64,000 nucleotides of DNA from Promethearchaeota archaeon (GTDB lineage Archaea > Asgardarchaeota > Lokiarchaeia > Sigyniarchaeales > SOKP01), in NCBI GenBank assembly GCA_020343655.1, contig CP070805.1, forward strand, positions 2,086,676 to 2,150,675, given 5' to 3'. This document shows, piece by piece, positions 50,044 to 62,925 of this stretch. The notes beneath the pieces were generated by a model. That model made no database searches and was not told the origin of the DNA. It was given only the letters and a program-made list of their open reading frames with translations. A program made the position numbers and the translations under genes. Numbering within the stretch: the stretch's first letter is position 1; each line of letters begins with the position of its first letter.

Positions 50044-50134
50044 ACCAAGGGGATGACAGGAGAGCCTTGCCAGGAAGGTAAAAAGGGGAGAAAATCTATA
50101 GGGGCAAGGAGGGGGAGATCCTACCTTTTTTTTT
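50044..50134 (+). ncRNA. Candidate small structured RNA or regulatory element (G+C/purine-rich island ending in T9)
   Basis: About 54% G+C by hand count over ~82 nt, versus about 30% in the flanks. CCTTGCC (50065-50071) is complementary to GGCAAGG (50103-50109). Nine T residues occupy 50126-50134. The strand assignment is tentative. Confidence 0.25.
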
Positions 50135-50156
50135 CTTAATATTAAATTAGATATCC

Positions 50157-51242
50157 CTAAGAAGCTAGAGGCTCTAGGTGGTATTTCCCATTTATATGTG
50201 AAACTTTTGATTTTTTTGAAAGAATCTTTAATAAGGATTCTCTTTCAGATTGATATTTGGATTTTAATAATCTGATTTGAAAGATTAAGTCTTTCTCACT
50301 TTCAATTTCAATCCAATGTAATTTCTCAAAGAATTTTAAAAAATTGAGATGAAATTCCTCTTCTTCTCCAAATTTCTCAATTTCACTTTCTATTAATTTT
50401 ACCCATTCTTGTTTGGTTTCTTCATTATTAAAAGTAATGATTATATTTTTATCATTAGCTAATTTCATCCATAAGTAGTAATCTTTATCATTTATAATTC
50501 TATTGTAATTGATGAAAAATGAAAGATTATGTTCCATAAGGTTGATTCTTTCTTTTTTTGCTAAATCCTTTATAAAAAATAAATCTGTTGCTTTTAAATC
50601 GAATCTACAATAATCTTCTTTACGTGAATATAGAAAATTTGTAATTTTAGTTCCTAATAATCCGAAAAATGCAGCTGAGAATTTATAATTTTCATAACAC
50701 AAATTTTCATATAATCCCGCATGTTCAAAGATTCCTGATAAATCTTTAATGCCTTTTCCAGTAAAAAGATCTAATCTAAATTCCTTAGAAAGATTGTTTG
50801 AAAATACATAGTTTCTCACTCGATTAAATATGGTTTTTATGCTAGTAATATCATATGGATCCATCCGGGATGTGTATATCCTTCTAAGTGTGAAGTAGAA
50901 AAAGGGATTTCTCTCAAGAGTGGGACTTGTATAACGATTTGTTCTTATTGCATTTTCGTAATAGGGTATTAAGGCACTAAAAGATATGTTTTGGAAAATA
51001 TCTTTTATTTCAGTATCAACAAATGCTTCGAAGTCATCAAGTGTTTTACCCTTTTCAAGGATATTCATTGTTTTATCCAAAACATAGTTATAAAAGGCAG
51101 AAATACTTTTGAACCTTTTATCTTCCGGATGTTGTTTATATTTTTCATTAACATATCCTTCGATTTTATTTTTAAGTGCCGGTGAAATAGAAATCGTTTG
51201 CTGGGTGATTTTCTTTTTTGATAAGGGTCTTTCTGTAGACAT
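50157..51242 (-). CDS. Uncharacterised protein, paralog B (RHH-like N-terminus)
   Basis: QQTISISPALKNKIEGYV....RFKSISAFYNYVLDKTM. It shares blocks with paralog A, including KGKTLDDF, NRYT, YEN.KF.AA..G.LG.K.T.F.YS, LAKKERI and YLWM.LA. Confidence 0.6.
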   Translation of the reverse strand: MSTERPLSKKKITQQTISISPALKNKIEGYVNEKYKQHPEDKRFKSISAFYNYVLDKTMNILEKGKTLDDFEAFVDTEIKDIFQNISFSALIPYYENAIRTNRYTSPTLERNPFFYFTLRRIYTSRMDPYDITSIKTIFNRVRNYVFSNNLSKEFRLDLFTGKGIKDLSGIFEHAGLYENLCYENYKFSAAFFGLLGTKITNFLYSRKEDYCRFDLKATDLFFIKDLAKKERINLMEHNLSFFINYNRIINDKDYYLWMKLANDKNIIITFNNEETKQEWVKLIESEIEKFGEEEEFHLNFLKFFEKLHWIEIESEKDLIFQIRLLKSKYQSERESLLKILSKKSKVSHINGKYHLEPLAS

Positions 51243-51334
51243 TCTAAATCATTACTCATATATATTTAACATTTATACCGTAGTATAAAGTATATACGGA
51301 ATAATATTAAGATATACTATTTTAAAATTCTTGT

Positions 51335-52963
51335 TTAAAGTACTTTAGAAACATAGACTCCATCTAAATTATATCCCATTTCATAGAACCAATCTCTTGC
51401 TCCGATTCCACTTATTACAGCTAACTTTTTTGCATCAAACTCTTCAAAAGATATCTTTTCAGCGTTTTCCATTAATAGTTTTCCAAAACCTCTATGTTGA
51501 ATTTGAGTGTATCGATTTGGTTTTAAATCTTTTGGAACAAGTTCACCCACTACTTTGATTTCTCTTACAATCATAGTTTTTCCATCATTTAATTCTGGTC
51601 TATGAGCGAATTCTGAGGGTTTTCTTAAGCGTAAATATCCAATTAAATAATCTTCGTTTTTATTCTCATAAGACAAGAATATTTCTTTCCCTTGAGAAGC
51701 ATCATAATCTAATCGATACAGTTTAACTTCGTCCAAAGATTTTTCATCGATAATTTCTTTTCTTTTACTGATACCGTACTCTTTGCATCTAATGCATTTA
51801 CAAGTTTCATTTATTTCTTTTAATCTTTCTTGTACCAACTGCCTTAAATTGCTATTTTTACATCCTGCTTCAATTAACGTAGCAGGGATGTCTCTCATAA
51901 TTCTTTGAATTCTAACATATGGAGGAAGATCAGTCTTAACCTTTGCTATTAAATCTATTAATTCTTTATCAGAATATGGAGTATATTTGCCCTTTTTCCA
52001 CCAATTGTATAATTCAGTACCACTTATTACTAGGGTAGGATAAATCTTTAACATATCAGGTCGATATTCTGGAATAGAAAATAAAATATCAAATAATTCT
52101 AAATCTTTATCGATACTTGAACCTGGTAAATTTGGCATTATGTGTGCGTTAATTTTTAATCCTGCATCTTTAGCAATCCTTATCGATTCAATGCTATCAG
52201 CGGTTGTATGCCCTCTCTTTATTAAATCATAGATTTCATTATAAATAGTTTGGATACCGATTTCAACTCGAGTAGTTCCAAAGTTTAACATATCATCAAT
52301 ATGTGTTTCCTTGCAATAATCTGGTCTTGTCTCAACAGTTATACCTATAACCCTTCTTTTGGATTTTTCTGCCACTATCTTGGCTTCTTCTAAACTGCCT
52401 GTTTTCTGTTCTATTATTCCTTCTAATGCCCCTTTAACGAATTCTGTTTGATAGTTCTGATCAGTTGATAAGAATGTCCCACCCATTATGATTAATTCGA
52501 TTTTATCTACAGCATGACCAATAGATTCTAAATCCTTAATTCTACTTTGGACTTGTAAGTAAGAATCATAATTGTTATGAATAGATCTCATAGCTGCTGG
52601 TTCTTGACCTGTATAAGATTGGGCTACTTTTTCTCCAGGCTGAGAATCTTGCCCTGGACAATATACACAAGTTCCAGGACAAGGAAGAGGTTTTGTCATA
52701 ATAGCTATAACAGATACACCAGATAAAGTTCTGGTTTTTCTTCTCTTAAGAATCTGGGTAATTATTAGTTTTTCTTGTTCCGTTGCAAAATCCAGGATTG
52801 TTGCATTTTTAATGACTTTATTGTATCTATATTTTTTTCCTATTCTACCTTTTATATTAGTAATTTTTTCTCTTGGAGTTTCTGGATTCCTTATTAAATA
52901 ATTTATGATCTCTCTTGAAATAAGTTTAATTTTTTCAGGAAATTCAGTTTTTTCTTGTACCAT
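51335..52963 (-). CDS. elp3: Elp3-type radical SAM / GNAT tRNA modification enzyme
   Basis: Has the radical SAM cluster motif CPGTCVYCPG and a C-terminal GNAT domain with QHRGFGKLLM. Confidence 0.9.
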   Translation of the reverse strand: MVQEKTEFPEKIKLISREIINYLIRNPETPREKITNIKGRIGKKYRYNKVIKNATILDFATEQEKLIITQILKRRKTRTLSGVSVIAIMTKPLPCPGTCVYCPGQDSQPGEKVAQSYTGQEPAAMRSIHNNYDSYLQVQSRIKDLESIGHAVDKIELIIMGGTFLSTDQNYQTEFVKGALEGIIEQKTGSLEEAKIVAEKSKRRVIGITVETRPDYCKETHIDDMLNFGTTRVEIGIQTIYNEIYDLIKRGHTTADSIESIRIAKDAGLKINAHIMPNLPGSSIDKDLELFDILFSIPEYRPDMLKIYPTLVISGTELYNWWKKGKYTPYSDKELIDLIAKVKTDLPPYVRIQRIMRDIPATLIEAGCKNSNLRQLVQERLKEINETCKCIRCKEYGISKRKEIIDEKSLDEVKLYRLDYDASQGKEIFLSYENKNEDYLIGYLRLRKPSEFAHRPELNDGKTMIVREIKVVGELVPKDLKPNRYTQIQHRGFGKLLMENAEKISFEEFDAKKLAVISGIGARDWFYEMGYNLDGVYVSKVL

Positions 52964-52994
52964 TTCGTGCCAAATTTAATGTATATTTGATTTT

Positions 52995-53873
52995 TTATAA
53001 CTCTACTTTCCTCCCAGTAAAATCTCTTTTAAATTTTCCAAAATCTTCCATGTTCTTTAGGGTTTCAGTTTTAAAAACAGGCCCATCCTTACAAACTAGT
53101 AATCCTAAAGGATCAATTACACATAATCCACACAATCCACACCCACATCTCATTATTCGCTCAAGACTTGCGTGAAGTTCAATATCCCATTTCTCACATA
53201 TTTCATAGATTGAATAGATCATTTTCTCAGGACCGCAAGTATAAACTATTGCATTTGAAAATAGTCTTTTTGAGTAGGTTTCTAAAATTGTTTCAAAAGC
53301 CTCAGTTGGAATACCTTTAGAACCATAACTCCCATCCTCGGTACAATAAAAAATATCAACTGATTTTTTATCTAATATTTGAAATTGATTAGCAAACATT
53401 AATTCACTTTTAACTTTTGCGCCTTGAATTAGGATAAAGGGAATTTTATGTTTAGATAGTTCTTCAGTAAGAAAACGAAGAGGAGCCATACCGATTCCTC
53501 CCCCAATTACGAATATATTTTTAGATTTTTGTTCTGGAATTTCAAACCAATTACCTAAAGGTCCTCTAACGCCAATAAAATCACCCCGTTTTAGGTTAAA
53601 AATTGCATCAGTGCACTCGCCAATATTTTTTACAGTAATACTCCAATTTCCATTTATATCACACCCTGAAACTGACATTGGGACCTCGTCAACTCCAGGA
53701 ACCCATAACATAACAAATTGCCCTGGTCTGGGTATGATATAGTTTGTATTTTCATTTTTCATATTGAACTTAATGGTTTTAACGTCTTCACATTCCATTA
53801 TAGCTTCTTCAATAGCAACAGTTCTTATGATATTTTCACTCAAAATCGGGTACCTCTTGAGTTTTATATTCAT
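52995..53873 (-). CDS. pyrK: Dihydroorotate dehydrogenase electron-transfer subunit
   Basis: Has an FAD/NAD-binding fold (RPGQFVMLWVPG, GGGIGMAPL) and the C-terminal 2Fe-2S motif CGCGLCGLC. Confidence 0.85.
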   Translation of the reverse strand: MNIKLKRYPILSENIIRTVAIEEAIMECEDVKTIKFNMKNENTNYIIPRPGQFVMLWVPGVDEVPMSVSGCDINGNWSITVKNIGECTDAIFNLKRGDFIGVRGPLGNWFEIPEQKSKNIFVIGGGIGMAPLRFLTEELSKHKIPFILIQGAKVKSELMFANQFQILDKKSVDIFYCTEDGSYGSKGIPTEAFETILETYSKRLFSNAIVYTCGPEKMIYSIYEICEKWDIELHASLERIMRCGCGLCGLCVIDPLGLLVCKDGPVFKTETLKNMEDFGKFKRDFTGRKVEL

Positions 53874-54762
53874 GGGCTAATCCAATTATTTCTGATATGG
53901 ATGAATATCCATTATTCTTAATATAATAAATTAAAGAATTATTGATTTCAGTAATGATTTCAACACCTTTATAAAGAGCAGTTCCGATTTGAACAGCATT
54001 AGCACCTGCTAACATAAATTCCACTACTTCTTTCCAAGTAAAGATACCTCCGCATCCAATAATTGGAATTTTTAATAATTGATAAAGATCATACACTTTT
54101 TTTACTGCAATTGGATGAATAGCTTTTCCAGATAGACCACCACTTCCATGAGCTAATATTGGTCTCTTAGTATTTATATCAATTACCATAGCTCCTAGGG
54201 TATTTATAGCAACAACTCCATCAGCACCGCCCTTTTCAGCTGCTAAGGCAATTTTCCCAATATCCGTAACGTTGGGGTTTAATTTAACAAATACTGGCAC
54301 TTTTAGATTATCTTTTAGTGTTTTAACAACTTTATAAGTTAAATCCTTGTTGATCCCTATTGATGATACCTCCGCGTGAGGACATGAAATATTTATCTCA
54401 ATAGCATCCGCACCTGCCTGTTCTGCTTTAGTGGCAACATTTAAATAAGAGTTAGCAGAGTCACCAAACACGCTAACTATCATAGGAATGTTAAATTCCT
54501 TTATTTCTTTAATTTCAGAAAGAAAATTGTCAATTCCGGGATTGCCAAGACCGACAGCATTCAGAAAGGTACCAGGAAATAATTCTATAATCGAAGGATT
54601 TTTATAGCCTTTTCTTGGATTAGGCCCAATCGATTTAGAGGTTACAGCACCTATCCCTGCGTTGAATATTCTCTTCATTGAAGAATATGATACACCTAAA
54701 ATTCCAGAGGCCAAAATAATGGGAGATTTTAATTCTAAACCAGAGAGATTTATTTCAAGCAT
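53836..54762 (-). CDS. pyrD: Dihydroorotate dehydrogenase catalytic subunit (class 1B)
   Basis: Contains GSGGLSGKAIHPIA and IGCGGI motifs. Its 3' end overlaps the pyrK start by 38 nt. Confidence 0.9.
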   Translation of the reverse strand: MLEINLSGLELKSPIILASGILGVSYSSMKRIFNAGIGAVTSKSIGPNPRKGYKNPSIIELFPGTFLNAVGLGNPGIDNFLSEIKEIKEFNIPMIVSVFGDSANSYLNVATKAEQAGADAIEINISCPHAEVSSIGINKDLTYKVVKTLKDNLKVPVFVKLNPNVTDIGKIALAAEKGGADGVVAINTLGAMVIDINTKRPILAHGSGGLSGKAIHPIAVKKVYDLYQLLKIPIIGCGGIFTWKEVVEFMLAGANAVQIGTALYKGVEIITEINNSLIYYIKNNGYSSISEIIGLAHEYKTQEVPDFE

Positions 54763-54839
54763 TTTTTTAAGAAAATAATGATTATAATTTTATAATAATT
54801 ATTAATGATGGAAAAACAAGTTTAAATTAACTAATCAAA

Positions 54840-56042
54840 ATGAAATCTTACATAGCAGACACTTTAATTGGAATTTTTGCATTTGATGAAACTGGAAACA
54901 TATTAAATTTTATTGATTTCAATGATGATATTGCAAAAATAATTGAATTTTATGACGCTTTGGATAATGACGTTATTCAAAAGGTATTTGAAGATTTTTT
55001 ATTAGATTTGAAAAATTCCGGATTTAGTGAATTTCTATTTGATAATAAGAAATTAGAATTATTAACTTCAGAAAAATTAGGTTATGAAACAATTTTTCAA
55101 AGAAATTCATTGGAGCTTAAATCTATACGTTTAAATTTAGATGAACACTTAAAAAAAGTGGGTATAATTAAAACAAGAGAAGAAATTCTAGCGCAATACA
55201 AAAAAGTAAGTGTAGAATTAACAAAGAGAAAGGTCAGTCAAGTCAGTGGTCATACTGATAATATAATAACTCAAATTATTACAGTTTTGGATGTAATAAA
55301 AAAATCAATCAGTCTATTTTCAAATCATCTTCGAGAATGGTATGGCTTACATTTCCCTGAATTAACTGACGAAATTATTGAGGAAAATATTATTTTAGCA
55401 AAATTAGTTTCAGTTTTAGGGTCAAGGGAGAATTTTACATTCAAAAATATTGAAAATAATTTTGATATTAAAGAAAGTAAGATTAAAGCCTTGGAGCAAT
55501 ATGCATTAGAATCAATGGGAGCAAAAATTGATCTTAATATCCTACAGAATTATGCTGACCAAATACTTTCTTTAGATACTTATCGACAGCAATTGGAGAA
55601 TTATTTAGAAGCAATGATGGAAAAAGCTGCTCCAAATATCAATGCTATTATTGGTTCTTTGATAGGGGCAAAATTAATAGCTAAAGCAGGCGGTTTGCAA
55701 AAATTAGCTTATATGCCTGCTTCCAGAATTCAATTATTAGGAGCTGAAAAAGCATTATACCGTTTTCTTAAAAGCGGTGAAAAAAGACCTAAACATGGCT
55801 TAATATTTCAGTGGAATCAAATTAGATCCTCAAAACCTATTTATAGAGGCAATATTGCAAGGATAGTTGCAGGAAAAATCGGGATTGCCGCTAAGGTCGA
55901 TTATTTTGATGGTAAATTCATCGGTGATATATTAACTAAAGAAATTCAAGGAAAAATAGAAGAATTAAAAAAGAAATTTCCTCAAAAAAAAAAAGTTGAA
56001 AGAAAAATGACTTTTAAACAAAAAAAGAAAGGCAAAAGATAG
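54840..56042 (+). CDS. nop5: C/D box sRNP core protein Nop5 (Nop56/58)
   Basis: Has the NOP domain AAPNINAIIGSLIGAKLIAKAGGLQKLAYMPASRIQLLGAEKALYRFLK and a Lys-rich tail. Confidence 0.95.
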   Translation: MKSYIADTLIGIFAFDETGNILNFIDFNDDIAKIIEFYDALDNDVIQKVFEDFLLDLKNSGFSEFLFDNKKLELLTSEKLGYETIFQRNSLELKSIRLNLDEHLKKVGIIKTREEILAQYKKVSVELTKRKVSQVSGHTDNIITQIITVLDVIKKSISLFSNHLREWYGLHFPELTDEIIEENIILAKLVSVLGSRENFTFKNIENNFDIKESKIKALEQYALESMGAKIDLNILQNYADQILSLDTYRQQLENYLEAMMEKAAPNINAIIGSLIGAKLIAKAGGLQKLAYMPASRIQLLGAEKALYRFLKSGEKRPKHGLIFQWNQIRSSKPIYRGNIARIVAGKIGIAAKVDYFDGKFIGDILTKEIQGKIEELKKKFPQKKKVERKMTFKQKKKGKR

Positions 56043-56332
56043 AACCTTTACATATTCAAAATTAATCAAGATCTTCCATCAAAAAATCTTCTATGATGTT
56101 TATGACCAATATGTTGATGCACCTATTCTTTTGCGGTTTCCCTTGACAAAATTTTTATTCTCTAGTTCTATCAATTTATTATATGCTGCTCTCATCCCTT
56201 TTCCAATAATTTTAGAAATAGTTAATTTACATTTTGGTTTTCTTCTCTTACGGCATAAAAAATGTAGAACTCTATTTATGTTATTTCATTCTCTCCAATG
56301 TTATTTTTACTATTCATTTTTAATGAAAAGAA

Positions 56333-56893
56333 TTAAAATACCACGTTATTTATTATCAATCTTTCAATTGCAGTTAACTCAGATCTATTTAATGATGTGA
56401 TGATTTTAAATAAAATTCCATTTGAAAGATGAAAAACCAAAGAATAATTGGAAAGTTTTAATCCATATGAAGATACAGTTGTATTCTTTTTAATATATAC
56501 ATTAGATATCATTAAAAATGGTATCAATTTCTTTTTAGTAAAGATTCCAAAGTGGGTTTCAATTTGAACTGTGCTTGAGATTTTATCAATTTTCAAAATC
56601 CTTTTAAAAAACAATCCTCTAATCAAAAAAAACAAACAAATAATTATAAATGAAAAAAATATGGCAGATATCAAAAAATAAGCAAATATCTTTAAATTTC
56701 TGTTTTCTAGAATGAATACATATGTTTCTATAATGAAAAGTAATAGAAAATAACCTATTAGAAAAATAACAATAATTACTATAAATAAAATTAAATTCTC
56801 TTTATAATTTAATTTTAAAGCTAATACATCCTGGTTATCTTTTATTATTTCAAATCTTTTATATTTTTTATCTCTAATAATTGTATCTTCCAT
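56333..56893 (-). CDS. Hypothetical membrane protein
   Basis: Two or three hydrophobic helices followed by a soluble C-terminal domain. It lies on the opposite strand between nop5 and fibrillarin. Confidence 0.45.
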   Translation of the reverse strand: MEDTIIRDKKYKRFEIIKDNQDVLALKLNYKENLILFIVIIVIFLIGYFLLLFIIETYVFILENRNLKIFAYFLISAIFFSFIIICLFFLIRGLFFKRILKIDKISSTVQIETHFGIFTKKKLIPFLMISNVYIKKNTTVSSYGLKLSNYSLVFHLSNGILFKIITSLNRSELTAIERLIINNVVF

Positions 56894-57190
56894 TATAATT
56901 CAATTGTTACTATTTCTCTTTAGTATAAATCTTATTTCACTTTTTATCTATAATCACAGTTATTATGAATGATTTGAACTTATTGTCATTTTTTGTAAAA
57001 ATTATTAAAGAGAATAAATCTTGGTTTGAATTTTTCACAAATGATATCTTATTGATTCTACATTTTTATTATCTGATAATAAATTTATTAATTTGTATTA
57101 ATCTATCAAAAAAAAAGGATAACTAGGAAATGAATATAAATTAAAACTGAGATTGACTAAATAAAGATTTGAATAAGAAATAAAATATTG

Positions 57191-57229
57191 GGAGAGTTAG
57201 TTCAATTAAGATTGAACTTCATCCTCTCC
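57191..57229. other. Nested inverted repeat / hairpin
   Basis: GGAGAG-tta-GTTCAAT-taag-ATTGAAC-ttcatc-CTCTCC: a 6-bp outer stem and a 7-bp inner stem. Confidence 0.4.
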
Positions 57230-57399
57230 GATTCTTGAATTATCTTTTTTTCATAAAATTTTATTTCAACATTATTTCTGCAATAATTTAATTAATTTAT
57301 TAATAACCTAATCCTTATTTTTTTATCTGAACTCACTTTTATTATCATATAATGATTTAATACAAAACTAAAAAAAAAGAAAATAAACGATTTTATTAA

Positions 57400-57542
57400 A
57401 TTCGTGAAAAAGTTGCTCGTCTGATAGCTGGAAAATTGGACTATCAGCTAAAGTTGATTTTCTCTTAGGTGAATTTATTGGTAATATTTTATCTAAAGAA
57501 GTTGAAGAAAAAAGAAAAGAAAATGATTGTTTTATTATAAAA
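57400..57542 (+). pseudogene. Relic of a Nop5 C-terminus (frameshifted) directly upstream of fibrillarin
   Basis: The region translates as IREKVARLIAG, then a 1-nt shift in the A-run at 57432-57435, then KIGLSAKVDFLLGEFIGNILSKEVEEKRKEN. Intact Nop5 reads YRGNIARIVAGKIGIAAKVDYFDGKFIGDILTKEIQGKIEEL. By hand alignment 22 of 42 positions are identical. Confidence 0.65.
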
Positions 57543-58241
57543 ATGACTAATATTGAAATTAGGAATCATCCAAAATTTAAAAATGTCTATATATCTGGCT
57601 CTCAAGAATATTTAAAACTCTATACAAAAAATTTAGATGTGGGTAAAAGAATCTACGGAGAGAAGTTGATTATACATAAGGATATACAATATAGAGAATG
57701 GGATCCTTTTAGAAGTAAATTGGCAGCATTAATTTTAGAAAATCCCATTACAAATTTCTTAACAGATAATTTAAAGTGTTTATATTTAGGAGCTTCTTCA
57801 GGTACCACTATTTCTCATCTTTCCGATATCATACAATCTGGAATCATATATGGTGTAGAATTCTCAGAAAGAAGTATTAGACAATTAATTCAAAATACTT
57901 CAAAAAGGGTAAATATCGTTCCAATTTTGGCAGATGCCCGCTTTCCAGAAAGTTATGCTAAATACTTTTTTACAGATATAGATTTAATCTATCAGGATGT
58001 TGCCCAACCACGACAAGCCAATATTGCGGTAGAAAATTGTAATTACTATCTGAAGAATGATGGTATTTTAATTATAGCTATTAAATCTCAATCAATTGAT
58101 AGTATTCAAAAATCTGAATATATTTATGCTCAAGAGAAAAAGATCCTAGAAAAAGCAGGATATCAAATCTTAGAAAGTATAAATATCCATAAATATGCTG
58201 CTAATCACATTATTTTGATAGCTAAAAAAGCAATTAGTTAA
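57543..58241 (+). CDS. flpA: Fibrillarin (rRNA/tRNA 2'-O-methyltransferase)
   Basis: Contains the LYLGASSGTTISHLSDI SAM-binding motif. Length is 232 aa. Confidence 0.95.
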   Translation: MTNIEIRNHPKFKNVYISGSQEYLKLYTKNLDVGKRIYGEKLIIHKDIQYREWDPFRSKLAALILENPITNFLTDNLKCLYLGASSGTTISHLSDIIQSGIIYGVEFSERSIRQLIQNTSKRVNIVPILADARFPESYAKYFFTDIDLIYQDVAQPRQANIAVENCNYYLKNDGILIIAIKSQSIDSIQKSEYIYAQEKKILEKAGYQILESINIHKYAANHIILIAKKAIS

Positions 58242-58875
58242 GAAACTCTGTTATTTTTCTGTTAGACAATTCTTCACTTATTATTTTTTTAGTTGTATCC
58301 CATGACTTCCTAGCAAAAATAGGTGGTTTTTTATTTTTTTTTACATATTCTCTCATGAATTCTATTGTTCTAACATCAGAAGGATATCCTGAGCCAAAAT
58401 TTCCGTATTCATCCTGGAGTTCTCCAATTAAGGCATCTCTTTTATCTTTAGCTATTATAGAACCTGCTGATACAATTGGATATATATCATCAGCCTTGTG
58501 TTTAGAGACTATTTTTTTAGGGGTATAATTTAATAATGCTTTTATAGATTCTCCGAATCTCTGTTCATTCACATCAACAGCGTCTATATAGATGATATCT
58601 GGTTTCAAATTATTAATTATCTCTGCCATTTTTAGTTCTTCAAGTCGATTCATTGTGATTTTTTTAAGTTCTCTCTCATCAATTTCCTGAGGTCCAATTA
58701 CAATGATTTTATGGGAATAACAGTTATTCTTTAATATATTAGCTAATTTACTCCTCTTTTTAGGAGATAATCTCTTTGAATCTTTAACCCCAATTTCAGA
58801 TAAAAAGTCTATTTTTGATTTGAAAAAACATACTCCACATAAAACCATTGGGCCTAAGACAGAGCCTTTTGACAT
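58234..58875 (-). CDS. rnhB: Ribonuclease HII, ORF as callable from first ATG (lacks the GIDEAGRG strand; see findings)
   Basis: GSVLGPMVLCGV, DSKRLSPKKR and ASIIAKDKRD blocks are typical of RNase HII. The catalytic N-terminal motif is encoded upstream, beyond an in-frame TAA. Confidence 0.85.
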   Translation of the reverse strand: MSKGSVLGPMVLCGVCFFKSKIDFLSEIGVKDSKRLSPKKRSKLANILKNNCYSHKIIVIGPQEIDERELKKITMNRLEELKMAEIINNLKPDIIYIDAVDVNEQRFGESIKALLNYTPKKIVSKHKADDIYPIVSAGSIIAKDKRDALIGELQDEYGNFGSGYPSDVRTIEFMREYVKKNKKPPIFARKSWDTTKKIISEELSNRKITEFLN

Positions 58876-58896
58876 ATAATTCGAAGTGAATTAAAT
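58867..58896 (-). other. 30-nt in-frame intervening segment with TAA inside the RNase HII GIDEAGRG motif
   Basis: In gene sense the sequence reads AGA|ATT TAA TTC ACT TCG AAT TAT ATG TCA AAA|GGC. Deleting the 30 nt restores GIDEAGRGSVLGPMV. Confidence 0.6.
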
Positions 58897-58939
58897 TCTA
58901 CCAGCCTCGTCTATCCCACAAATTAATTCTATTTTATCC

Positions 58940-59941
58940 TCATGATTCTTGGATGAGTTCAATGAATTCTTCTTCATTATCCAGTTTTTCTAAATTTTTA
59001 ATTCTAACAATGGGAATTTTTTCCTTTTTAAACATCTCAGGAATTTTAATATCGTTATCAATTATTAAGAGTGAAGTCTTGTGGAATAAATCTGCGAAAA
59101 TTTTTAGACATTTCAAACTCATTTCATTGACTTTACCTTGTTCTTCTGAAATACTAGAAAAAAGAGGATAAAATCCTTCTAAATCTTTTTTTTCGGACGT
59201 AGAGTATAAGGATAATTTAAAGGGAATTGACCCTTTCTTATACCAGTATGAAGTAAGGCCGATATCCCTTATTATATTTTGTATGTGAGATTCAAATTCA
59301 TTTAATTCTTTCTCTTCAAAGATTTTTTTATCATCGACAATATTTTCAATAGGCCATCCAAAAACGTTTATTTTTTTAAAAAGATCATTATTTTCCAATA
59401 TCTCTAGTAGCTTTTCAGCAATTTTTTCAGATGGACGCATAGATTCGTTTTCATATGCACACAAGGTTCTCTTCGTTACACCTAAAGTTTCTGATAGTTC
59501 CTTTCTTGTTATTGAATGATTTTCTCTTAGTATTTTCATTAAACTACCATTTAAAAACACAACTCCACCACCCCTTCTTGCTAAGATATAAGGATATCTA
59601 TCGTTAAGGATATTCTCAAATGTATTAAGAGTAATAAAGGGTAAACCTTCTCTTATATAGATTGTATTGTCGTCTAATTTTTGGTATCGATTCCTTAGTC
59701 CGATTAATAATGGCTTTGATTTGAGAATTGTAGATAAAGATTTAATATCTCGAATTATATCAGGGTTTAAATTATCAATATTAGGAAATATTTTTACACT
59801 AAATATCTGATTTTCTTTTTTAACTAACAGATCAAAGCAGAATTTGTTTTTCTTAGTAGCAAAATTTTCCAATACTAATGTTTCATAATTAGCATTCTTT
59901 AATAAAACGTCAATTCTCTCAAGAATCTTTTCAATCATCAA
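58940..59941 (-). CDS. Putative transcriptional regulator with central XRE-type HTH
   Basis: The HTH segment is ITRKELSETLGVTKRTLCAYENESMRPS, in the middle of a 333-aa protein. Confidence 0.55.
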   Translation of the reverse strand: MMIEKILERIDVLLKNANYETLVLENFATKKNKFCFDLLVKKENQIFSVKIFPNIDNLNPDIIRDIKSLSTILKSKPLLIGLRNRYQKLDDNTIYIREGLPFITLNTFENILNDRYPYILARRGGGVVFLNGSLMKILRENHSITRKELSETLGVTKRTLCAYENESMRPSEKIAEKLLEILENNDLFKKINVFGWPIENIVDDKKIFEEKELNEFESHIQNIIRDIGLTSYWYKKGSIPFKLSLYSTSEKKDLEGFYPLFSSISEEQGKVNEMSLKCLKIFADLFHKTSLLIIDNDIKIPEMFKKEKIPIVRIKNLEKLDNEEEFIELIQES

Positions 59942-60059
59942 ATTTAATCTTTAAAAAATAATATTGTATAAAAAAATTATTCTTTTTTCTATTATATAAT
60001 ATCAATTTACAAATATATTGCTTTTACATTCTAACATTGATAAATTTTCGAATTTTTAC

Positions 60060-60629
60060 TTACTTTTTATTAGGTAATCTAAGAAGATCAGAATCAGTAA
60101 CTATTCCAATATAATCATTATTTTCTTTTACCAAAACAGCAGGATACTTCAAAAGTAAATCAGATATGTCCTTTACATTCCAATTTTTATCAATTTCTGG
60201 AAATGGTAATTCTTTTATAAGCGATACATCCATATTAATAATTTGTGGATTATCTGTTATGTATTTCTGAATTTTTTTAGATGTTATACTTCCCAAATTC
60301 TGATTATTTTCTATTATTGGTAATTGTGAGATTTCATGTTTATTCATTAAATCTACTGCTTTTCTTATAGTTGAGCTGGATTCGATAGATATTATATCAT
60401 GTACCATTATATCTTCCGCATGTTTCTTTGATTTTTCTCGTATTTTACGTTCATTTTCGAGATATTCAAAAATTTTTTTTAACTTAGAATATGGAGGATC
60501 TATGGTTCCGTTTTCAATTCTAGAAATTGTAGACTGCGGAATATTTAATATTTCTCCCAGGTCTTTTTGACTGATGTTTAATTTTTTACGTAATCGCTTA
60601 ACATCACTCAAAGAGGGTAATATTTCCAT
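60060..60629 (-). CDS. XRE-type HTH plus CBS-pair domain regulator
   Basis: The N-terminal LNISQKDLGEILNIPQSTISRIENG HTH is followed by two CBS-like repeats (VHDIISIES...ISQLPII and PAVLVKENNDYIGIVTDSDLL). Confidence 0.75.
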   Translation of the reverse strand: MEILPSLSDVKRLRKKLNISQKDLGEILNIPQSTISRIENGTIDPPYSKLKKIFEYLENERKIREKSKKHAEDIMVHDIISIESSSTIRKAVDLMNKHEISQLPIIENNQNLGSITSKKIQKYITDNPQIINMDVSLIKELPFPEIDKNWNVKDISDLLLKYPAVLVKENNDYIGIVTDSDLLRLPNKK

Positions 60630-60809
60630 ATTATAATAACATATTTTTATGCTGTATATGCATAATTATTATACAAAATATTTAATAAATATTTACATTT
60701 ATAAAAAGCAAATACTGTATTTTTCATTTAATAAGGAATTTAACTGATAAATAATTTAAAAACATATTTAAAAGGACTATTTATATAGATAAGAAGTTGG
60801 TTAATTGAA

Positions 60810-62054
60810 ATGTTAAAAATTACTCGTGCTAACTTTTTACCAATTGAAAAAAGTGAATTCCCAGAACTCTGTGAAAGGAAAGGTATTGGACACCCTGATA
60901 CTGTTTGTGATGCCGTTGCTGATGCTTGTTCTAGAGCTTTGTGTCTTTATTATCTTGAGAAATTCGATAGAGTATACCACCATAATGTTGATAAGGCTGC
61001 TCTCGTTGGAGGTACTGCAAAACCAGAATATGGCGGAGGTCAGATTATCCAACCACAATATTTTCTCATTGTTGGAAGAGCAATAAATCAAATTCTTAGA
61101 GAGTGTAGTGATGGTACAAATAAACTTGAGTATATTCCTATTCCTACTATTTGTATAGAAACACAACGTGAAGTTCTTTCCAAAATTTTTAGAAACCTTG
61201 ATTTAAATAAAGATATCCAGTTTGATTATGCAGTTCGACCGGGTTCAATAGATTTGACAGGAGTTTTTGATGAGTCTCATCATTCTGAAGAAATTCCACT
61301 TGCTAATGATACAAGTTTTGGTGTCGGTTATGCTCCATATTCGGATGTAGAAAGAATTACTTTAGAAGCTGAAAAATTAATTAATTCGAATAAATTTAAA
61401 GATAAGTGCCCCGCTTCCGGAGAAGATGTGAAGGTTATGACAGAACGAATGGGGAATGAAATTGGAATAACAGTAGCTGCTGCCATGATTAGCAAATATA
61501 TCAACGATGCTAGTGAATATGTTAGTTATACCAATCAAATAAAAGAAGCAGTTTTAGATTTAGCAGCAGATATTATCCCAGAACGTGACATATCATGCCA
61601 AGTAAATGTAGCGGATAATATAGAAAAAGGAATTATATATTTAACTATTACTGGAACATCTGCGGAAGCTGGTGATGATGGAGAAGTAGGACGCGGAAAT
61701 AGAGCAAATGGACTCATAACTCCTTGTAGAACAATGAGCCTAGAAGCTGTTTGCGGAAAGAACCCTATTAATCACGTAGGTAAATTATATAATGTACTTG
61801 GAACAGAAATGGCAAGAGAAATTGTAAAGAGAGGACAAGGAGATATTATAGAGGCACACGTCAAACTTTTATCTCAGATTGGAAGACCAATAACCGATCC
61901 ATGGGTAAATTCAATTGAATTAATTCCTGCAGATAATGTAAACTTTGATTCAGCAAAGAGAATAGCAGAGGAGGTATCCGCTGAAAAGCTCAGTAAAGAA
62001 TACTTTTTTGATTTAAGAAAGAGACTTATTGCAGGTGAGGTTCAAGTATTTTAG
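60810..62054 (+). CDS. mat: Archaeal-type S-adenosylmethionine synthetase
   Basis: Contains the ERKGIGHPDTVCDAVAD N-terminus and NDTSFGVGYAP. The ~410-aa length fits the archaeal MAT family. Confidence 0.9.
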   Translation: MLKITRANFLPIEKSEFPELCERKGIGHPDTVCDAVADACSRALCLYYLEKFDRVYHHNVDKAALVGGTAKPEYGGGQIIQPQYFLIVGRAINQILRECSDGTNKLEYIPIPTICIETQREVLSKIFRNLDLNKDIQFDYAVRPGSIDLTGVFDESHHSEEIPLANDTSFGVGYAPYSDVERITLEAEKLINSNKFKDKCPASGEDVKVMTERMGNEIGITVAAAMISKYINDASEYVSYTNQIKEAVLDLAADIIPERDISCQVNVADNIEKGIIYLTITGTSAEAGDDGEVGRGNRANGLITPCRTMSLEAVCGKNPINHVGKLYNVLGTEMAREIVKRGQGDIIEAHVKLLSQIGRPITDPWVNSIELIPADNVNFDSAKRIAEEVSAEKLSKEYFFDLRKRLIAGEVQVF

Positions 62055-62188
62055 TGTTTAATTATCGATAAACAAATTTTTATTTTTTTCCCTTTTTTTA
62101 TTTATTAGGTTTTAAGTTTATGAAATAACTATATAGATATATGTTTTAAATCTTCCTTAAATTATTAGATTTCTAAGGTGATTATCTA

Positions 62189-62455
62189 ATGGGTTTAGAC
62201 AAGTGGCTCAAGTCAGATGATATAGCAAAAGAATCAACAAAAAAAAAGGAATCATCAATTAAAGCTAAAAGAAGTAAAGGTGAACAAATACAACCTAAAG
62301 AACTTGAAACACAATCAATTAAGTTAACAAAATATGTGTTGGTTTGTCCAAATGCAAAATGTAAATATCAAAAGACAATTATTAAAAAGCAAATCACTGA
62401 TGAAGATAAAACCTGTCCGAGATGTAAGACAAAAATGAAAATTAAGGAATTGTAA
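62189..62455 (+). CDS. Small Lys-rich zinc-ribbon protein
   Basis: CPNAKC...CPRC knuckles in an 88-aa basic protein. Confidence 0.45.
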   Translation: MGLDKWLKSDDIAKESTKKKESSIKAKRSKGEQIQPKELETQSIKLTKYVLVCPNAKCKYQKTIIKKQITDEDKTCPRCKTKMKIKEL

Positions 62456-62708
62456 ATTTATTTTTAGGACCAAATACTTGGGTAATATTTATTTTTTGTG
62501 AGGGAAGGTTATTTAAATCAAAAACAGATTCGCAATTCGGGCAGGTATTTGGCTTTTTTGAATATTTCAGAATAAAGTAAATGATAAAGCCTAAACCTAA
62601 AGTTAGGATTACCATAAAGCAAAGAAGCTCATGATATTGATGAGCAAAATTCTTCCGGCGAAGCAAGACCTCCTGTTCACAAGTTGGGCAATATATTTTA
62701 TGACCCAT
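62442..62708 (-). CDS. Split zinc ribbon with embedded hydrophobic helix (LITAF/SIMPLE-like architecture)
   Basis: CPTC is followed by about 45 aa that include the helix LLCFMVILTLGLGFIIYFIL, then CPNC. Confidence 0.4.
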   Translation of the reverse strand: MGHKIYCPTCEQEVLLRRKNFAHQYHELLCFMVILTLGLGFIIYFILKYSKKPNTCPNCESVFDLNNLPSQKINITQVFGPKNKFTIP

Positions 62709-62925
62709 TTTTCGACTTCCAAAAATATTTTGATGATGAATAAATCTAATACAATGAAGTATAATTATTTTTTGTTTAATATAAAATTATCATTAAACTT
62801 TTTCCATCTTTTGGTAAGTCTACCATAATATATTCTTTACCAATTAGACTTTTTGAAACATAAATTAGCTAGAATTCATCGTATATACGAAATTTTTAGG
62901 AAATAAAAGCATATTTTTAAGGAAA

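Follow-up and report, generated by a model that had tools for sequence, protein, structure and literature searches.

The window analysed here is a stretch of 64,000 nt from contig CP070805.1 of a Promethearchaeota archaeon, and it carries nop5 and the fibrillarin gene flpA, both intact and in the same order and orientation as in the canonical archaeal aNOP56-fibrillarin pair (Table 1). In the archaeal nop5-flpA operon, the two genes lie on the same strand within a few tens of nucleotides and with nothing between them. In the window, the stop codon of nop5 and the start codon of flpA are 1,500 nt apart and an opposite-strand gene lies between them, whereas the gap in 123 related archaeal loci (54 genome and 69 metagenome loci) is about −4 to 30 nt and none of these loci shows the 1.5-kb spacing. 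The nearest relative, L001, also lacks the 1.5 kb; by blastn it was collinear with window positions 50060-55981 and 57512-62833, and L001 together with the 54 + 69 loci with adjacent genes represents the empty site. These results demonstrate that the nop5-flpA operon is split in the window and that this arrangement is exceptional among relatives. A sequence-only reading of the same DNA had claimed such a split, and its coordinates and the content that it assigned to the gap, an opposite-strand ORF (ORF186) and about 500 nt of AT-rich DNA, proved correct.

Table 1. Features of the nop5-flpA locus, in window coordinates.
Feature	Position	Strand	Remarks
nop5	54840-56042	+	400 aa; Pfam Nop PF01798 (E 1.6e-61) and archaeal Nop5 N-terminal domain
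Native nop5 5′ part (nt 1 to ~984)	54840-55822	+	Syntenic orthologue of the L001 gene
Putative replacement nop5 3′ end (left copy; codons 335-400 and stop)	55842-56042	+	Intact; apparently constrained and of aberrant ancestry
Winged-helix-like ORF remnant	56100-56285	−	Translation ends in LTISKIIGKGMRAAYNKLIELENKNFVKGNRKRIGASTYWS and a stop; usable start codon absent; named from translation pattern only
ORF186	56333-56893	−	186 aa; sole intact gene of the insert; small membrane protein (predicted)
AT-rich non-coding stretch	56894-57399		506 nt; 17-19% GC; longest ORF at most 53 aa
Hairpin	57190-57229		Real; within the AT-rich stretch
nop5 3′-end relic (right copy)	57400-57526	+	nop5 nt 1003 to ~1125; nhmmer profile nt 1003-1130
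Ancestral nop5-flpA spacer	57527-57542	+	16 nt, retained; 15-20 nt in relatives; blastn collinearity with L001 resumes at 57512
flpA (fibrillarin)	57543-58241	+	Intact; Pfam Fibrillarin (E 5e-78); NCBIfam fibrillarin-like 2′-O-methyltransferase

ORF186 is 100% identical to the NCBI hypothetical protein JSV23_10770, and comparison with its homologues in L082 and L081 gave dN/dS values of 0.21-0.26. Its homology to four other contigs was confined to window positions 56303-56914, and the flanks differed in all four. By these comparisons ORF186 is a live gene under purifying selection, which sits in other genomic contexts elsewhere and behaves as an accessory, context-hopping gene; that it is live goes beyond what had been noted before. 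The AlphaFold model of ORF186 (pLDDT 83), which had EROS/CYBC1 as its sole significant PDB match (8kei_D, E 2.4e-5), predicts a transmembrane hairpin inside a PH-like domain, and a sequence-profile search of the PDB with the ORF186 family gave no match. In the winged-helix-like remnant, only a 31-aa ATG ORF was listed; searches of Pfam, PHROG and NCBIfam gave no match and the protein database no homologue. It probably represents a defunct gene of the insert, for which we infer a helix-turn-helix from the translation. The AT-rich stretch must hold the promoter of ORF186, and it probably also holds whatever now drives flpA. The hairpin that had been reported in this stretch is present, but its fold was not significant (z −1.3 and −1.7); it was not repeated in the window and was absent from 162 related loci. 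In addition, 54000-59000 gave no Rfam match at E up to 1, a pattern search of the insert for C/D-box sRNAs was negative, and a scan for sigma-70 promoters and terminators, which is uninformative for an archaeon, gave fewer matches than shuffled sequences.

The sequence upstream of flpA had been described as a frameshifted relic of the Nop5 C terminus, a claim that depended on significant similarity in a profile search. Using an nhmmer profile built from 48 Lokiarchaeial nop5-flpA loci, we found that 57400-57526 matched profile nt 1003-1130 with 62.5 bits (E 3e-21). The relic was also detected by tblastn of the whole window with Nop5 (E 2e-5), by blastn with nop5 (74.7% identity over 75 nt, E 8.5e-8) and as a match to positions 187-226 of the 228 positions of Pfam Nop (E 0.0034), and its BLOSUM62 local score against Nop5 was 120, compared to 30.4 ± 4.7 (maximum 61) for 2000 shuffles. 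The identity of 22 of 42 residues with the resident Nop5 tail was reproduced, and one nucleotide missing from the GGAAAA run at 57430-57435 causes the frameshift. The relic lacks about 87 nt internally (profile nt 1131-1217), the part that encodes IEEKYPxPPKK and further K-rich sequence. Its terminal K-rich codons and stop survive in a third frame (AGA AAA AAG AAA AGA AAA TGA), and the position of the old nop5 stop is kept (TGA, 57524-57526). The segment thus combines a significant match to the C-terminal end of the Nop domain with disabling lesions, as befits a nop5 pseudogene fragment. With filters off, nhmmer detected no other nop5 remnant in 56043-57399 and no sequence from before nop5 nt 1003 upstream of 57400. 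An inverted nop5-like piece of 43 nt at 57048-57091 (blastn E 3e-5) was dismissed as a chance match, since 9 of 100 shuffles score equally.

Of 55 columns with at least 90% conservation among relatives, 8 (about 14%) are changed in the relic, and no relative departs at more than 3. Its rare states fall at 4 variable and 8 conserved columns, its GC content is 29% versus 33%, and it is 68% identical to L001, sharing none of seven L001-rare states. This pattern looks like typical clade sequence that has since undergone unconstrained, neutral decay. Judged from its sequence and position, 57400-57526 is the original 3′ end of nop5, evidently dead now, at the ancestral 16-nt distance from flpA. It had also been proposed that the relic is fused to the start of flpA; the frame that enters the flpA ATG has no start codon, and so nothing is fused to flpA in an expressed sense. 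The relic might instead have been kept for a function of its own, such as serving flpA as promoter, 5′ UTR or translation-initiation context, given that the ancestral spacer and the sequence directly upstream of the flpA ATG are kept and that flpA must have gained independent expression. We consider this improbable, as the eight substitutions at the 55 conserved columns, the frameshift and the deletion of about 87 nt look neutral and the frame cannot be started; furthermore, flpA of L054 has no nop5 sequence upstream at all, and hence the relic is not required for flpA.

We then compared the resident nop5 with that of L001. The 5′ part was about 92% identical to L001 at the nucleotide level (88-97% in 60-nt windows) and 91% identical at the amino acid level over residues 1-334. 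Collinearity and this 92% identity over the first 984 nt rule out a xenologous replacement of the whole gene. The scenario in which an older nop5 decayed after a second copy had arrived is not supported either, because only nt ~1003 to the end is duplicated and the head is the orthologue of the L001 gene. The last exact run of at least 17 nt common to the window nop5 and L001 ends at 55811, and identity to L001, which was 88-97% up to nt ~960, fell to about 73% beyond nt ~990 and to 53-63% over the tail. In nop5 coordinates, this switch in ancestry (nt ~985) coincides with the start of the relic. After nt 1020, none of 11 L001-rare states were shared, compared to 30 of 50 in the head (p ~4e-5); third-position identity to L001 was 24/42 in the 3′ segment versus 83% in the head, and dS was 1.03 versus 0.34. 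The identity of this segment to L001 (0.73) was lower than that of all 41 relative pairs of comparable head identity. The density of rare states reached 15.1% in the resident 3′ end, compared to 5.7-5.9% in the nop5 head and both flpA halves and a mean of 6.3% in relatives. Eighteen of the rare states fell at variable columns (12 at third codon positions), which equals but does not exceed the maximum among relatives, and one fell at a conserved column; this split differed from that in the relic (Fisher p 5e-4). The Pfam Nop domain of the resident Nop5 is complete to residue 374. Its tail lacks the KYPxPPKK motif that is present in all relatives and matches any of the 48 relatives compared at no more than 9 of 24 residues. 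The rare-state pattern of the resident 3′ end points to a long period of separate evolution under purifying selection. L029 likewise has a nop5 3′ segment that is discordant.

Two direct copies of the nop5 3′ end therefore flank the insert, both starting at nop5 nt ~1003, and they are 65% identical with indels. The upstream copy completes the intact gene, and the downstream copy is untranslatable and stands in the ancestral place beside flpA. Only one rare state is common to the two; the intact end appears to be the aberrant one, and the copies do not look like diverged sisters. An earlier scenario of insertion with partial duplication followed by drift holds insofar as the insert lies between two 3′-end copies, but is not borne out where it derives the copies from each other. 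In full, this rival explanation is that slippage or template switching produced an in-situ tandem duplication of the final ~200 nt of nop5, that foreign DNA landed between the copies, and that the downstream copy decayed while the upstream copy evolved fast. This would account for two direct copies of one nop5 segment around the insert and for the failure to find an integrase or att core. Moreover, the decay of the relic at about 14% of conserved columns implies an old event, and few shared private states are then expected, so the sister-copy comparison is weak; its power is low if the duplication is as old as the private branch of this lineage. We nonetheless regard in-situ duplication as unlikely: it requires two events at one spot, and with 18 private changes, chiefly at third positions, the constrained copy would have outpaced the unconstrained one (11), which implies faster-than-neutral change at variable sites while conserved ones were spared. 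The dS of 1.03 to L001 beside a head at 0.34 and a tail unlike that of any of the 48 relatives also speak against it.

The block of low affinity to L001 does not end with the insert; it reaches 330 nt into flpA, an observation beyond the sequence-only reading. Identity to L001 was 0.80 for flpA nt 1-330 (third-position 0.59, dS 1.0) versus 0.92 for nt 331-696 (third-position 0.83, dS 0.28), and the difference of 0.113 exceeded that of all 152 comparable pairs (maximum 0.089). The first exact run of at least 17 nt shared by the window flpA and L001 starts at 57879. The breakpoints relative to L001 were placed at 55812-55830 (~55820), just past the conserved KHGLIFQWNQI, and at 57860-57879 (~57870), and in the 5′ part of flpA the window and L001 are no longer mutual nearest relatives. 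Divergence between the two is mosaic over 12 kb (dS 1.43 for the neighbouring pyrD-like gene and 1.07 for the ORF at 50157-51242), so a lost affinity to L001 is by itself weak evidence for origin from an element. Because the block is bounded by breakpoints at ~55820 and ~57870, another recombination event at the least, or else a chimeric assembly, must be involved; likewise, since the relic has no special affinity to L001 and the block runs into flpA, a single integration in this lineage is not the whole explanation.

One way to meet this is that homologous recombination, with crossovers in the conserved nop5 and flpA stretches, either brought in a block of about 2 kb (replacement end, insert, relic and flpA nt 1-330) from a different Lokiarchaeial lineage or repaired it in the L001 lineage, which would once have carried it. 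We hold this to be a serious possibility, somewhat short of even, and an addition to the models of origin rather than a substitute for them. It agrees with the breakpoints on both sides, with a dS of about 1.0 that the resident nop5 segment shares with the flpA 5′ part and that falls to 0.28-0.34 in the flanks, with the loss of mutual nearest-relative status in the flpA 5′ part and with the commonness of mosaic dS along the 12 kb. However, it does not by itself explain the two nop5 3′ ends, and the resident segment is far more aberrant than the flpA 5′ part of the same block (15.1% versus 5.8% rare states). In addition, the closest relatives by FlpA identity (86% among genomes and 81% among metagenomes) are too distant to polarise the exchange between the window and L001. 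The alternative is an assembly chimera, in which the assembler jumped from one of two co-occurring Lokiarchaeia to the other at k-mers conserved in nop5 and flpA. On that view, the ancestry switch in nop5 is an artefact, and the operon split and the relic exist all the same but belong to a different genome. In favour of a chimera, the sequence comes from a metagenome-assembled genome, conserved stretches adjoin both breakpoints, and the exact Nop5 and FlpA products of the window are absent from the gene-position collection. Nevertheless, a chimera is very improbable: the source contig of 2.27 Mb suggests careful or long-read assembly, copies that are 65% identical with indels are no collapsed or duplicated repeat, and a simple switch between two genomes would not explain why the nop5 segment is more aberrant than the flpA 5′ part.

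The reading that we favour, with a probability of roughly 0.5, is that a now degraded integrated element brought its own nop5 3′ end, as e14 did in icd/icdC of Escherichia coli. About 1.56 kb of DNA (roughly 55842-57399) would have entered nop5 near codon 330-335. Its first part, in frame and at the same nop5 coordinate, would have been a more divergent but unbroken form of the last ~66 codons. This would make the resident nop5 a chimera, native over the 5′ five-sixths and imported over the final sixth; an essential gene would have been kept whole and its old end displaced 1.4 kb downstream. Such an outcome would be expected from Campbell-type integration, site-specific or homology-driven, of a circular element whose attachment region mimics the 3′ end of the target gene. 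What is left would be a remnant, with ORF186 live, the winged-helix-like ORF dead, ~500 nt of AT-rich DNA and no integrase. flpA would have lost co-transcription with nop5 and would now depend on expression signals that lie in the AT-rich DNA or the relic. Later, the composite block may have moved between lineages by homologous recombination, or L001 may have lost it that way, a step invoked because the breakpoints at ~55820 and ~57870 need explaining.

The accessory, context-hopping behaviour of ORF186 lends support to this favoured reading, and several searches bear on it. No integrase, recombinase, transposase or mobile-element domain was found in the ORFs of 56043-57399 using Pfam, PHROG and NCBIfam, which fits only a degraded or non-autonomous element. 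No att core was found between the two nop5 copies, whose longest exact shared string is an 11-nt A-run out of register; a core could have eroded as the relic decayed. The ends of the insert carry no terminal inverted repeats. An insertion sequence or transposon was rejected on the lack of a transposase and of such repeats, and because a gene repeat of 127-200 nt is too long for a target-site duplication. Searches of IMG/VR with ORF186 and the resident Nop5 tail gave no match, phage and plasmid collections contained no match to an element or donor, and the protein database returned only ordinary Nop5 fragments (63-64%) for the resident tail. An exact look-up of the ORF186 product, like those of Nop5 and FlpA, gave no record. 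Overall, neither an intact element nor a donor nor a second example was detected in the 162 related loci, IMG/VR, the phage and plasmid collections or the protein databases.

In E. coli, the e14 prophage supplies the 3′ codons of icd and leaves a 163-bp pseudo-icd at its far end (PMC6379469; PMC13626634), a case that goes back to Hill et al. (1989; PMC210168) as cited in PMC13626634. As with e14 and phage 21 in icd, the proposed integration here struck an essential or central protein-coding gene in its 3′ part, the upstream side supplies a slightly different 3′ end that keeps the gene intact, and direct copies of the gene's 3′ end with the same start coordinate flank the insert. The old 3′ end is an untranslated direct repeat at the far end in both cases, 163 bp for icd and 127 nt left of ~200 for nop5. 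In contrast, e14 is 15 kb long with an integrase and SOS-induced excision, and the nop5 insert is 1.36 kb plus the 200-nt end and has no recombinase; the e14 copies are near-identical with a defined core, and the nop5 copies are 65% identical, with no core and no evidence of excision. A further difference from icd is that the downstream gene, flpA, is an operon partner whose co-transcription is broken. In archaea, elements and proviruses with SSV-type and pNOB8-type integrases target the 3′ ends of tRNA genes, and casposons insert at the 3′ end of aEF-2. These elements, too, have the target's 3′ end duplicated at both ends, a rebuilt gene and empty sites in relatives; unlike the nop5 insert, they have short exact att sites or target-site duplications and their own integrase or casposase. 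Integrated elements of Asgard archaea have been described from Atabeyarchaeia (iMGEs; PMC11529989) and Heimdallarchaeia (PMC8813620). Like the nop5 insert, these Asgard elements can be small, with some of only 2.6-11 kb, and were recognised against genomes without them, whereas the published ones encode tyrosine integrases and use att motifs that are short (11 bp) and AT-rich, neither of which was found here. None of them is reported to lie in nop5 or flpA, and no mention is made of nop5 or fibrillarin.

Read in this way, the locus is a clean molecular fossil, an integration scar of a well-known type that calls for no new mechanism. It indicates that even the highly conserved nop5-fibrillarin pair can be broken by inserted DNA in an Asgard archaeon if the essential gene is repaired in the same event, and it offers a natural example of fibrillarin having to be expressed apart from its operon partner. 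For annotation, the label of 57400-57526 should be nop5 pseudogene fragment rather than intergenic DNA. The locus also illustrates the mosaicism of a Lokiarchaeial chromosome, in which synonymous divergence from L001 jumps three-fold over tracts of a few hundred bases. As a more speculative extension, for which we see only an outside chance, Lokiarchaeia may harbour a family of integrative elements that attach at the nop5 3′ end and carry a working mimic of the Nop5 C terminus. If so, the discordant nop5 3′ segment of L029 would count as another trace of such a family. Should an intact element with that target turn up, Asgard archaea would have their first described integrative element that targets a protein gene. 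In the presence of such a family, repeated rounds of integration, excision and homologous exchange would shuffle Nop5 C termini among lineages and occasionally uncouple fibrillarin from nop5.

The window belongs to an AT-rich Lokiarchaeial (Promethearchaeota) genome, in which nop5, whose product is assigned by NCBIfam to the aNOP56 subunit, is separated from the fibrillarin gene flpA by 1,500 nt containing five features. The nop5 end at 56042 and the flpA start at 57543 proposed by the sequence-only reading were confirmed, and the opposite-strand membrane ORF and ~500 nt of AT-rich non-coding DNA that it described in the gap are both present, the ORF being intact. In 54 related genome loci (FlpA identity 62-86%), the distance between nop5 stop and flpA start ranges from -4 to 30 nt, and nop5 was found directly upstream of flpA in 69 additional metagenome loci, which bears out the claim that a normally adjacent pair has been split here. 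The nearest relative (L001, JBHLMQ010000007.1; amino acid identity 87% for Nop5 and 86% for FlpA) is collinear with the window at 50060-55981 and 57512-62833 and does not carry the extra DNA. Among the related loci, the split arrangement is exceptional. At its other end, flpA overlaps by 8 nt (58234-58241) with an RNase HII gene that lies convergently on the minus strand (58234-58875), so that the two genes share their stop regions.

Features of the nop5-flpA locus (window coordinates)
Feature	Position	Strand	Remarks
nop5	54840-56042	+	400 aa; complete Pfam Nop domain (E 1.6e-61) and archaeal Nop5 N-terminal domain
Winged-helix-like ORF remnant	56100-56285	-	no start codon
ORF186	56333-56893	-	intact 186-aa membrane-protein gene
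Non-coding DNA between ORF186 and relic			506 nt, 17-19% GC
Hairpin in AT-rich part	57190-57229		sole copy; statistically unremarkable
nop5-like stretch (relic)	57400-57526	+	nucleotide profile match
nop5-flpA spacer			16 nt, 3' of relic stop
flpA	57543-58241	+	Pfam Fibrillarin, E 5e-78

Several other loci in the comparison deserve mention. In JBHLPW010000024.1 (L054; Promethearchaeota H3B.172, 1-700), an unrelated plus-strand ORF and a spacer of ~150 nt precede flpA, and neither nop5 nor a relic was found in the 546 nt between flpA and the contig end. This is a second, independent nop5-flpA break; the pair can thus be broken in other ways, and flpA is able to dispense with the relic. One contig of 62 kb (DATKTW010000134.1), which bears the name 'Candidatus Nanopelagicaceae bacterium', carries a typical Lokiarchaeial nop5-flpA pair with FlpA 71% identical to that of the window and is probably mis-binned or mislabelled. 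In several other loci, the Asgard phylum labels are inconsistent (Hermod-, Hod-, Thor- and Odinarchaeota) despite FlpA identities of ~80%.

The stretch before flpA had been described as a frameshifted relic of the Nop5 C-terminus, and this was confirmed. The reconstructed peptide, IREKVARLIAG/KIGLSAKVDFLLGEFIGNILSKEVEEKRKEN, scored 120 against the resident Nop5, compared with 30 +/- 5 (maximum 61) for shuffled sequences, and corresponds to positions 187-226 of the Pfam Nop model (length 228). Searches of the whole window matched the relic to Nop5 by tblastn (E 2e-5) and by blastn (74.7% identity over 75 nt). Furthermore, a nucleotide profile built from the nop5-flpA loci of 48 relatives aligned nop5 nt 1003-1130 with 57400-57526 (62.5 bits, E 3e-21), then jumped ~87 profile positions and resumed at the flpA start. 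The frameshift stems from a run at 57430-57435 that is short by 1 nt, and the IEEKYPxPPKK...K-rich part is missing; the terminal K/R codons and the stop (TGA 57524-57526) are kept in a third frame. With 16 nt between this stop and the flpA ATG, compared with 15-20 nt in relatives, the relic occupies the ancestral physical position. The relic frame does continue into flpA, as had been claimed; however, it lacks a start codon and so gives rise to no expressed fusion. The relic is changed at ~14% of conserved columns and shows signs of decay and none of conservation.

Both 3' copies were compared with relatives, and it is the intact one that appears aberrant. In 60-nt windows, the identity of resident nop5 to L001 is 88-97% up to nt ~960; past nt ~990 it drops to ~73%, and then to 53-63% in the tail, and L001 is no longer privileged in similarity there. 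The encoded proteins share 91% of amino acids over residues 1-334, 28/42 over residues 335-376 and 8/24 in the tail, where all relative pairs of similar head identity share at least 43%; dS against L001 is 0.34 for the head and 1.03 for the 3' segment. The segment identity to L001 of 0.73 is below every one of 41 comparable pairs. When we scored rare states (nucleotides uncommon among related loci at a column), the resident shared 30 of the 50 carried by L001 in the head and 0 of 11 after nt 1020, and the relic shared 0 of 7, indicating no special affinity to L001. The resident segment had a rare-state density of 15.1%, compared with 5.7-5.9% for the nop5 head and both flpA halves and an average of 6.3% (maximum 14.3%) for the 3' segments of relatives. 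Of the 19 rare states of the resident segment, 18 fall in variable columns, 12 of these at third positions, and one in the 55 columns kept in at least 90% of relatives, whereas the relic has eight in such conserved columns and four in variable ones (Fisher p 5e-4); only one is common to both copies. The intact copy therefore looks long separate and under purifying selection, and the relic looks like an ordinary clade member that later decayed without constraint. In another locus (L029, JAUWZR010000053.1), the nop5 3' segment is 78-81% identical to relatives sharing 87-92% in the nop5 head, and their other pairs share 90-97%; it is possibly another swapped nop5 3' end.

These patterns bear on the two origins offered by the sequence-only reading, whose interpretation was partly supported. 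Decay of an older nop5 after arrival of a second copy is not supported, because the duplication is confined to the last ~200 nt and the first 984 nt of the resident represent the syntenic orthologue. The other origin, insertion and partial duplication with later drift, holds in part; it would require that, at variable sites, the copy under constraint outpaced the one free of it.

The stretch without L001 affinity reaches on into flpA. Identity to L001 is 0.80 (third positions 0.59, dS 1.0) over flpA nt 1-330 and 0.92 (0.83, dS 0.28) over nt 331-696, a difference that exceeds all 152 comparable pairs, so the entire block at ~55,820-57,870 differs in history from its flanks. Exact runs of at least 17 nt shared with L001 end at 55,811 and reappear at 57,879, each breakpoint following a conserved stretch. 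Three readings may account for this block: the composite allele arrived whole by homologous recombination, it was lost from L001 by the same process, or the assembly switches between populations there. Over 50060-62833, dS against L001 is itself mosaic, reaching 1.43 in a pyrD-like gene (53836-54762) and 1.07 in the ORF at 50157-51242, with 0.34-0.55 in other neighbours, which suggests frequent homologous exchange among Lokiarchaeial lineages. This mosaic weakens arguments drawn solely from L001; the case for a foreign resident end comes mainly from the contrast with the flpA 5' part in the same block and from the pattern of conserved and variable columns.

The insert carries one live gene. 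The ORF186 product, 100% identical to NCBI protein JSV23_10770 from a contig of 2.27 Mb, is under purifying selection, as shown by a dN/dS of 0.21-0.26, and its family has 7 representatives at E < 1e-3 among 1.84 billion proteins. At least four further contigs from Lokiarchaeia carry the gene at 84-88% nucleotide identity (L081 1-420, L082 465-1052, L163 85-641 and L164 96-704). Homology is restricted to 56303-56914, from ~20 nt upstream of the start codon to between ~10 nt inside the stop (L163) and 30 nt past it, and the neighbourhoods elsewhere all differ (a toxin-antitoxin-like pair, an MmeI-type methylase region, a glycoside-hydrolase-like ORF and an FGGY kinase); ORF186 behaves like a small context-hopping module. 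Its AlphaFold model (pLDDT 83; two strands, a transmembrane hairpin, six strands and a helix) predicts a PH-like domain interrupted by a transmembrane hairpin. As a side observation outside the nop5 finding, the sole significant PDB match was EROS/CYBC1 (8kei_D, E 2.4e-5, TM 0.60/0.67), a eukaryotic NADPH-oxidase chaperone of the same length class and topology whose PH-like domain is likewise split by a transmembrane hairpin (PMC11161758); Pfam and a PDB sequence-profile search found no sequence-level similarity between the two. The minus-strand frame at 56100-56285 (61 codons) has a winged-helix-like pattern (LTISKIIGKGMRAAYNKLIELENKNFVKG), no ATG, GTG or TTG upstream of its internal Met and no homologue in any library, and is probably a dead regulator gene from the inserted DNA.

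Two nop5 segment copies around an insert, with an empty site in relatives, form the geometry expected if a circular element that mimics the 3' end of its target integrated in Campbell fashion. DNA would have entered the essential nop5 at codon ~330-335; such an insertion is tolerated only if a working C-terminus restores the reading frame, and the insert begins with exactly such an end. Its own nop5 C-terminus would have completed the resident gene, leaving both copies to border the remaining insert, and all that is left of the element would be a single live cargo gene, a dead ORF and AT-rich DNA. No recombinase was found in the ORFs of 56043-57399 (Pfam, PHROG, NCBIfam), and no common core of the two copies, the longest shared string being an A-rich, out-of-register 11-mer; 162 related loci, IMG/VR, phage and plasmid collections and protein databases yielded neither a donor nor a second example. 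We consider Campbell-type integration of an element with a nop5 3' mimic the best explanation, at about even odds. In E. coli, prophage e14 supplies the last codons of icd and leaves a 163-bp pseudo-icd (icdC) at its other end (PMC6379469; PMC13626634); here too, the end of the target gene would be supplied by the insert and the old end left at the far side. Taken together, the locus is most likely a degraded integration scar with nop5 3'-end replacement inside a recombinant block, and, as the sequence-only reading proposed and synteny supports, flpA appears to have been deprived of its partner and promoter context.
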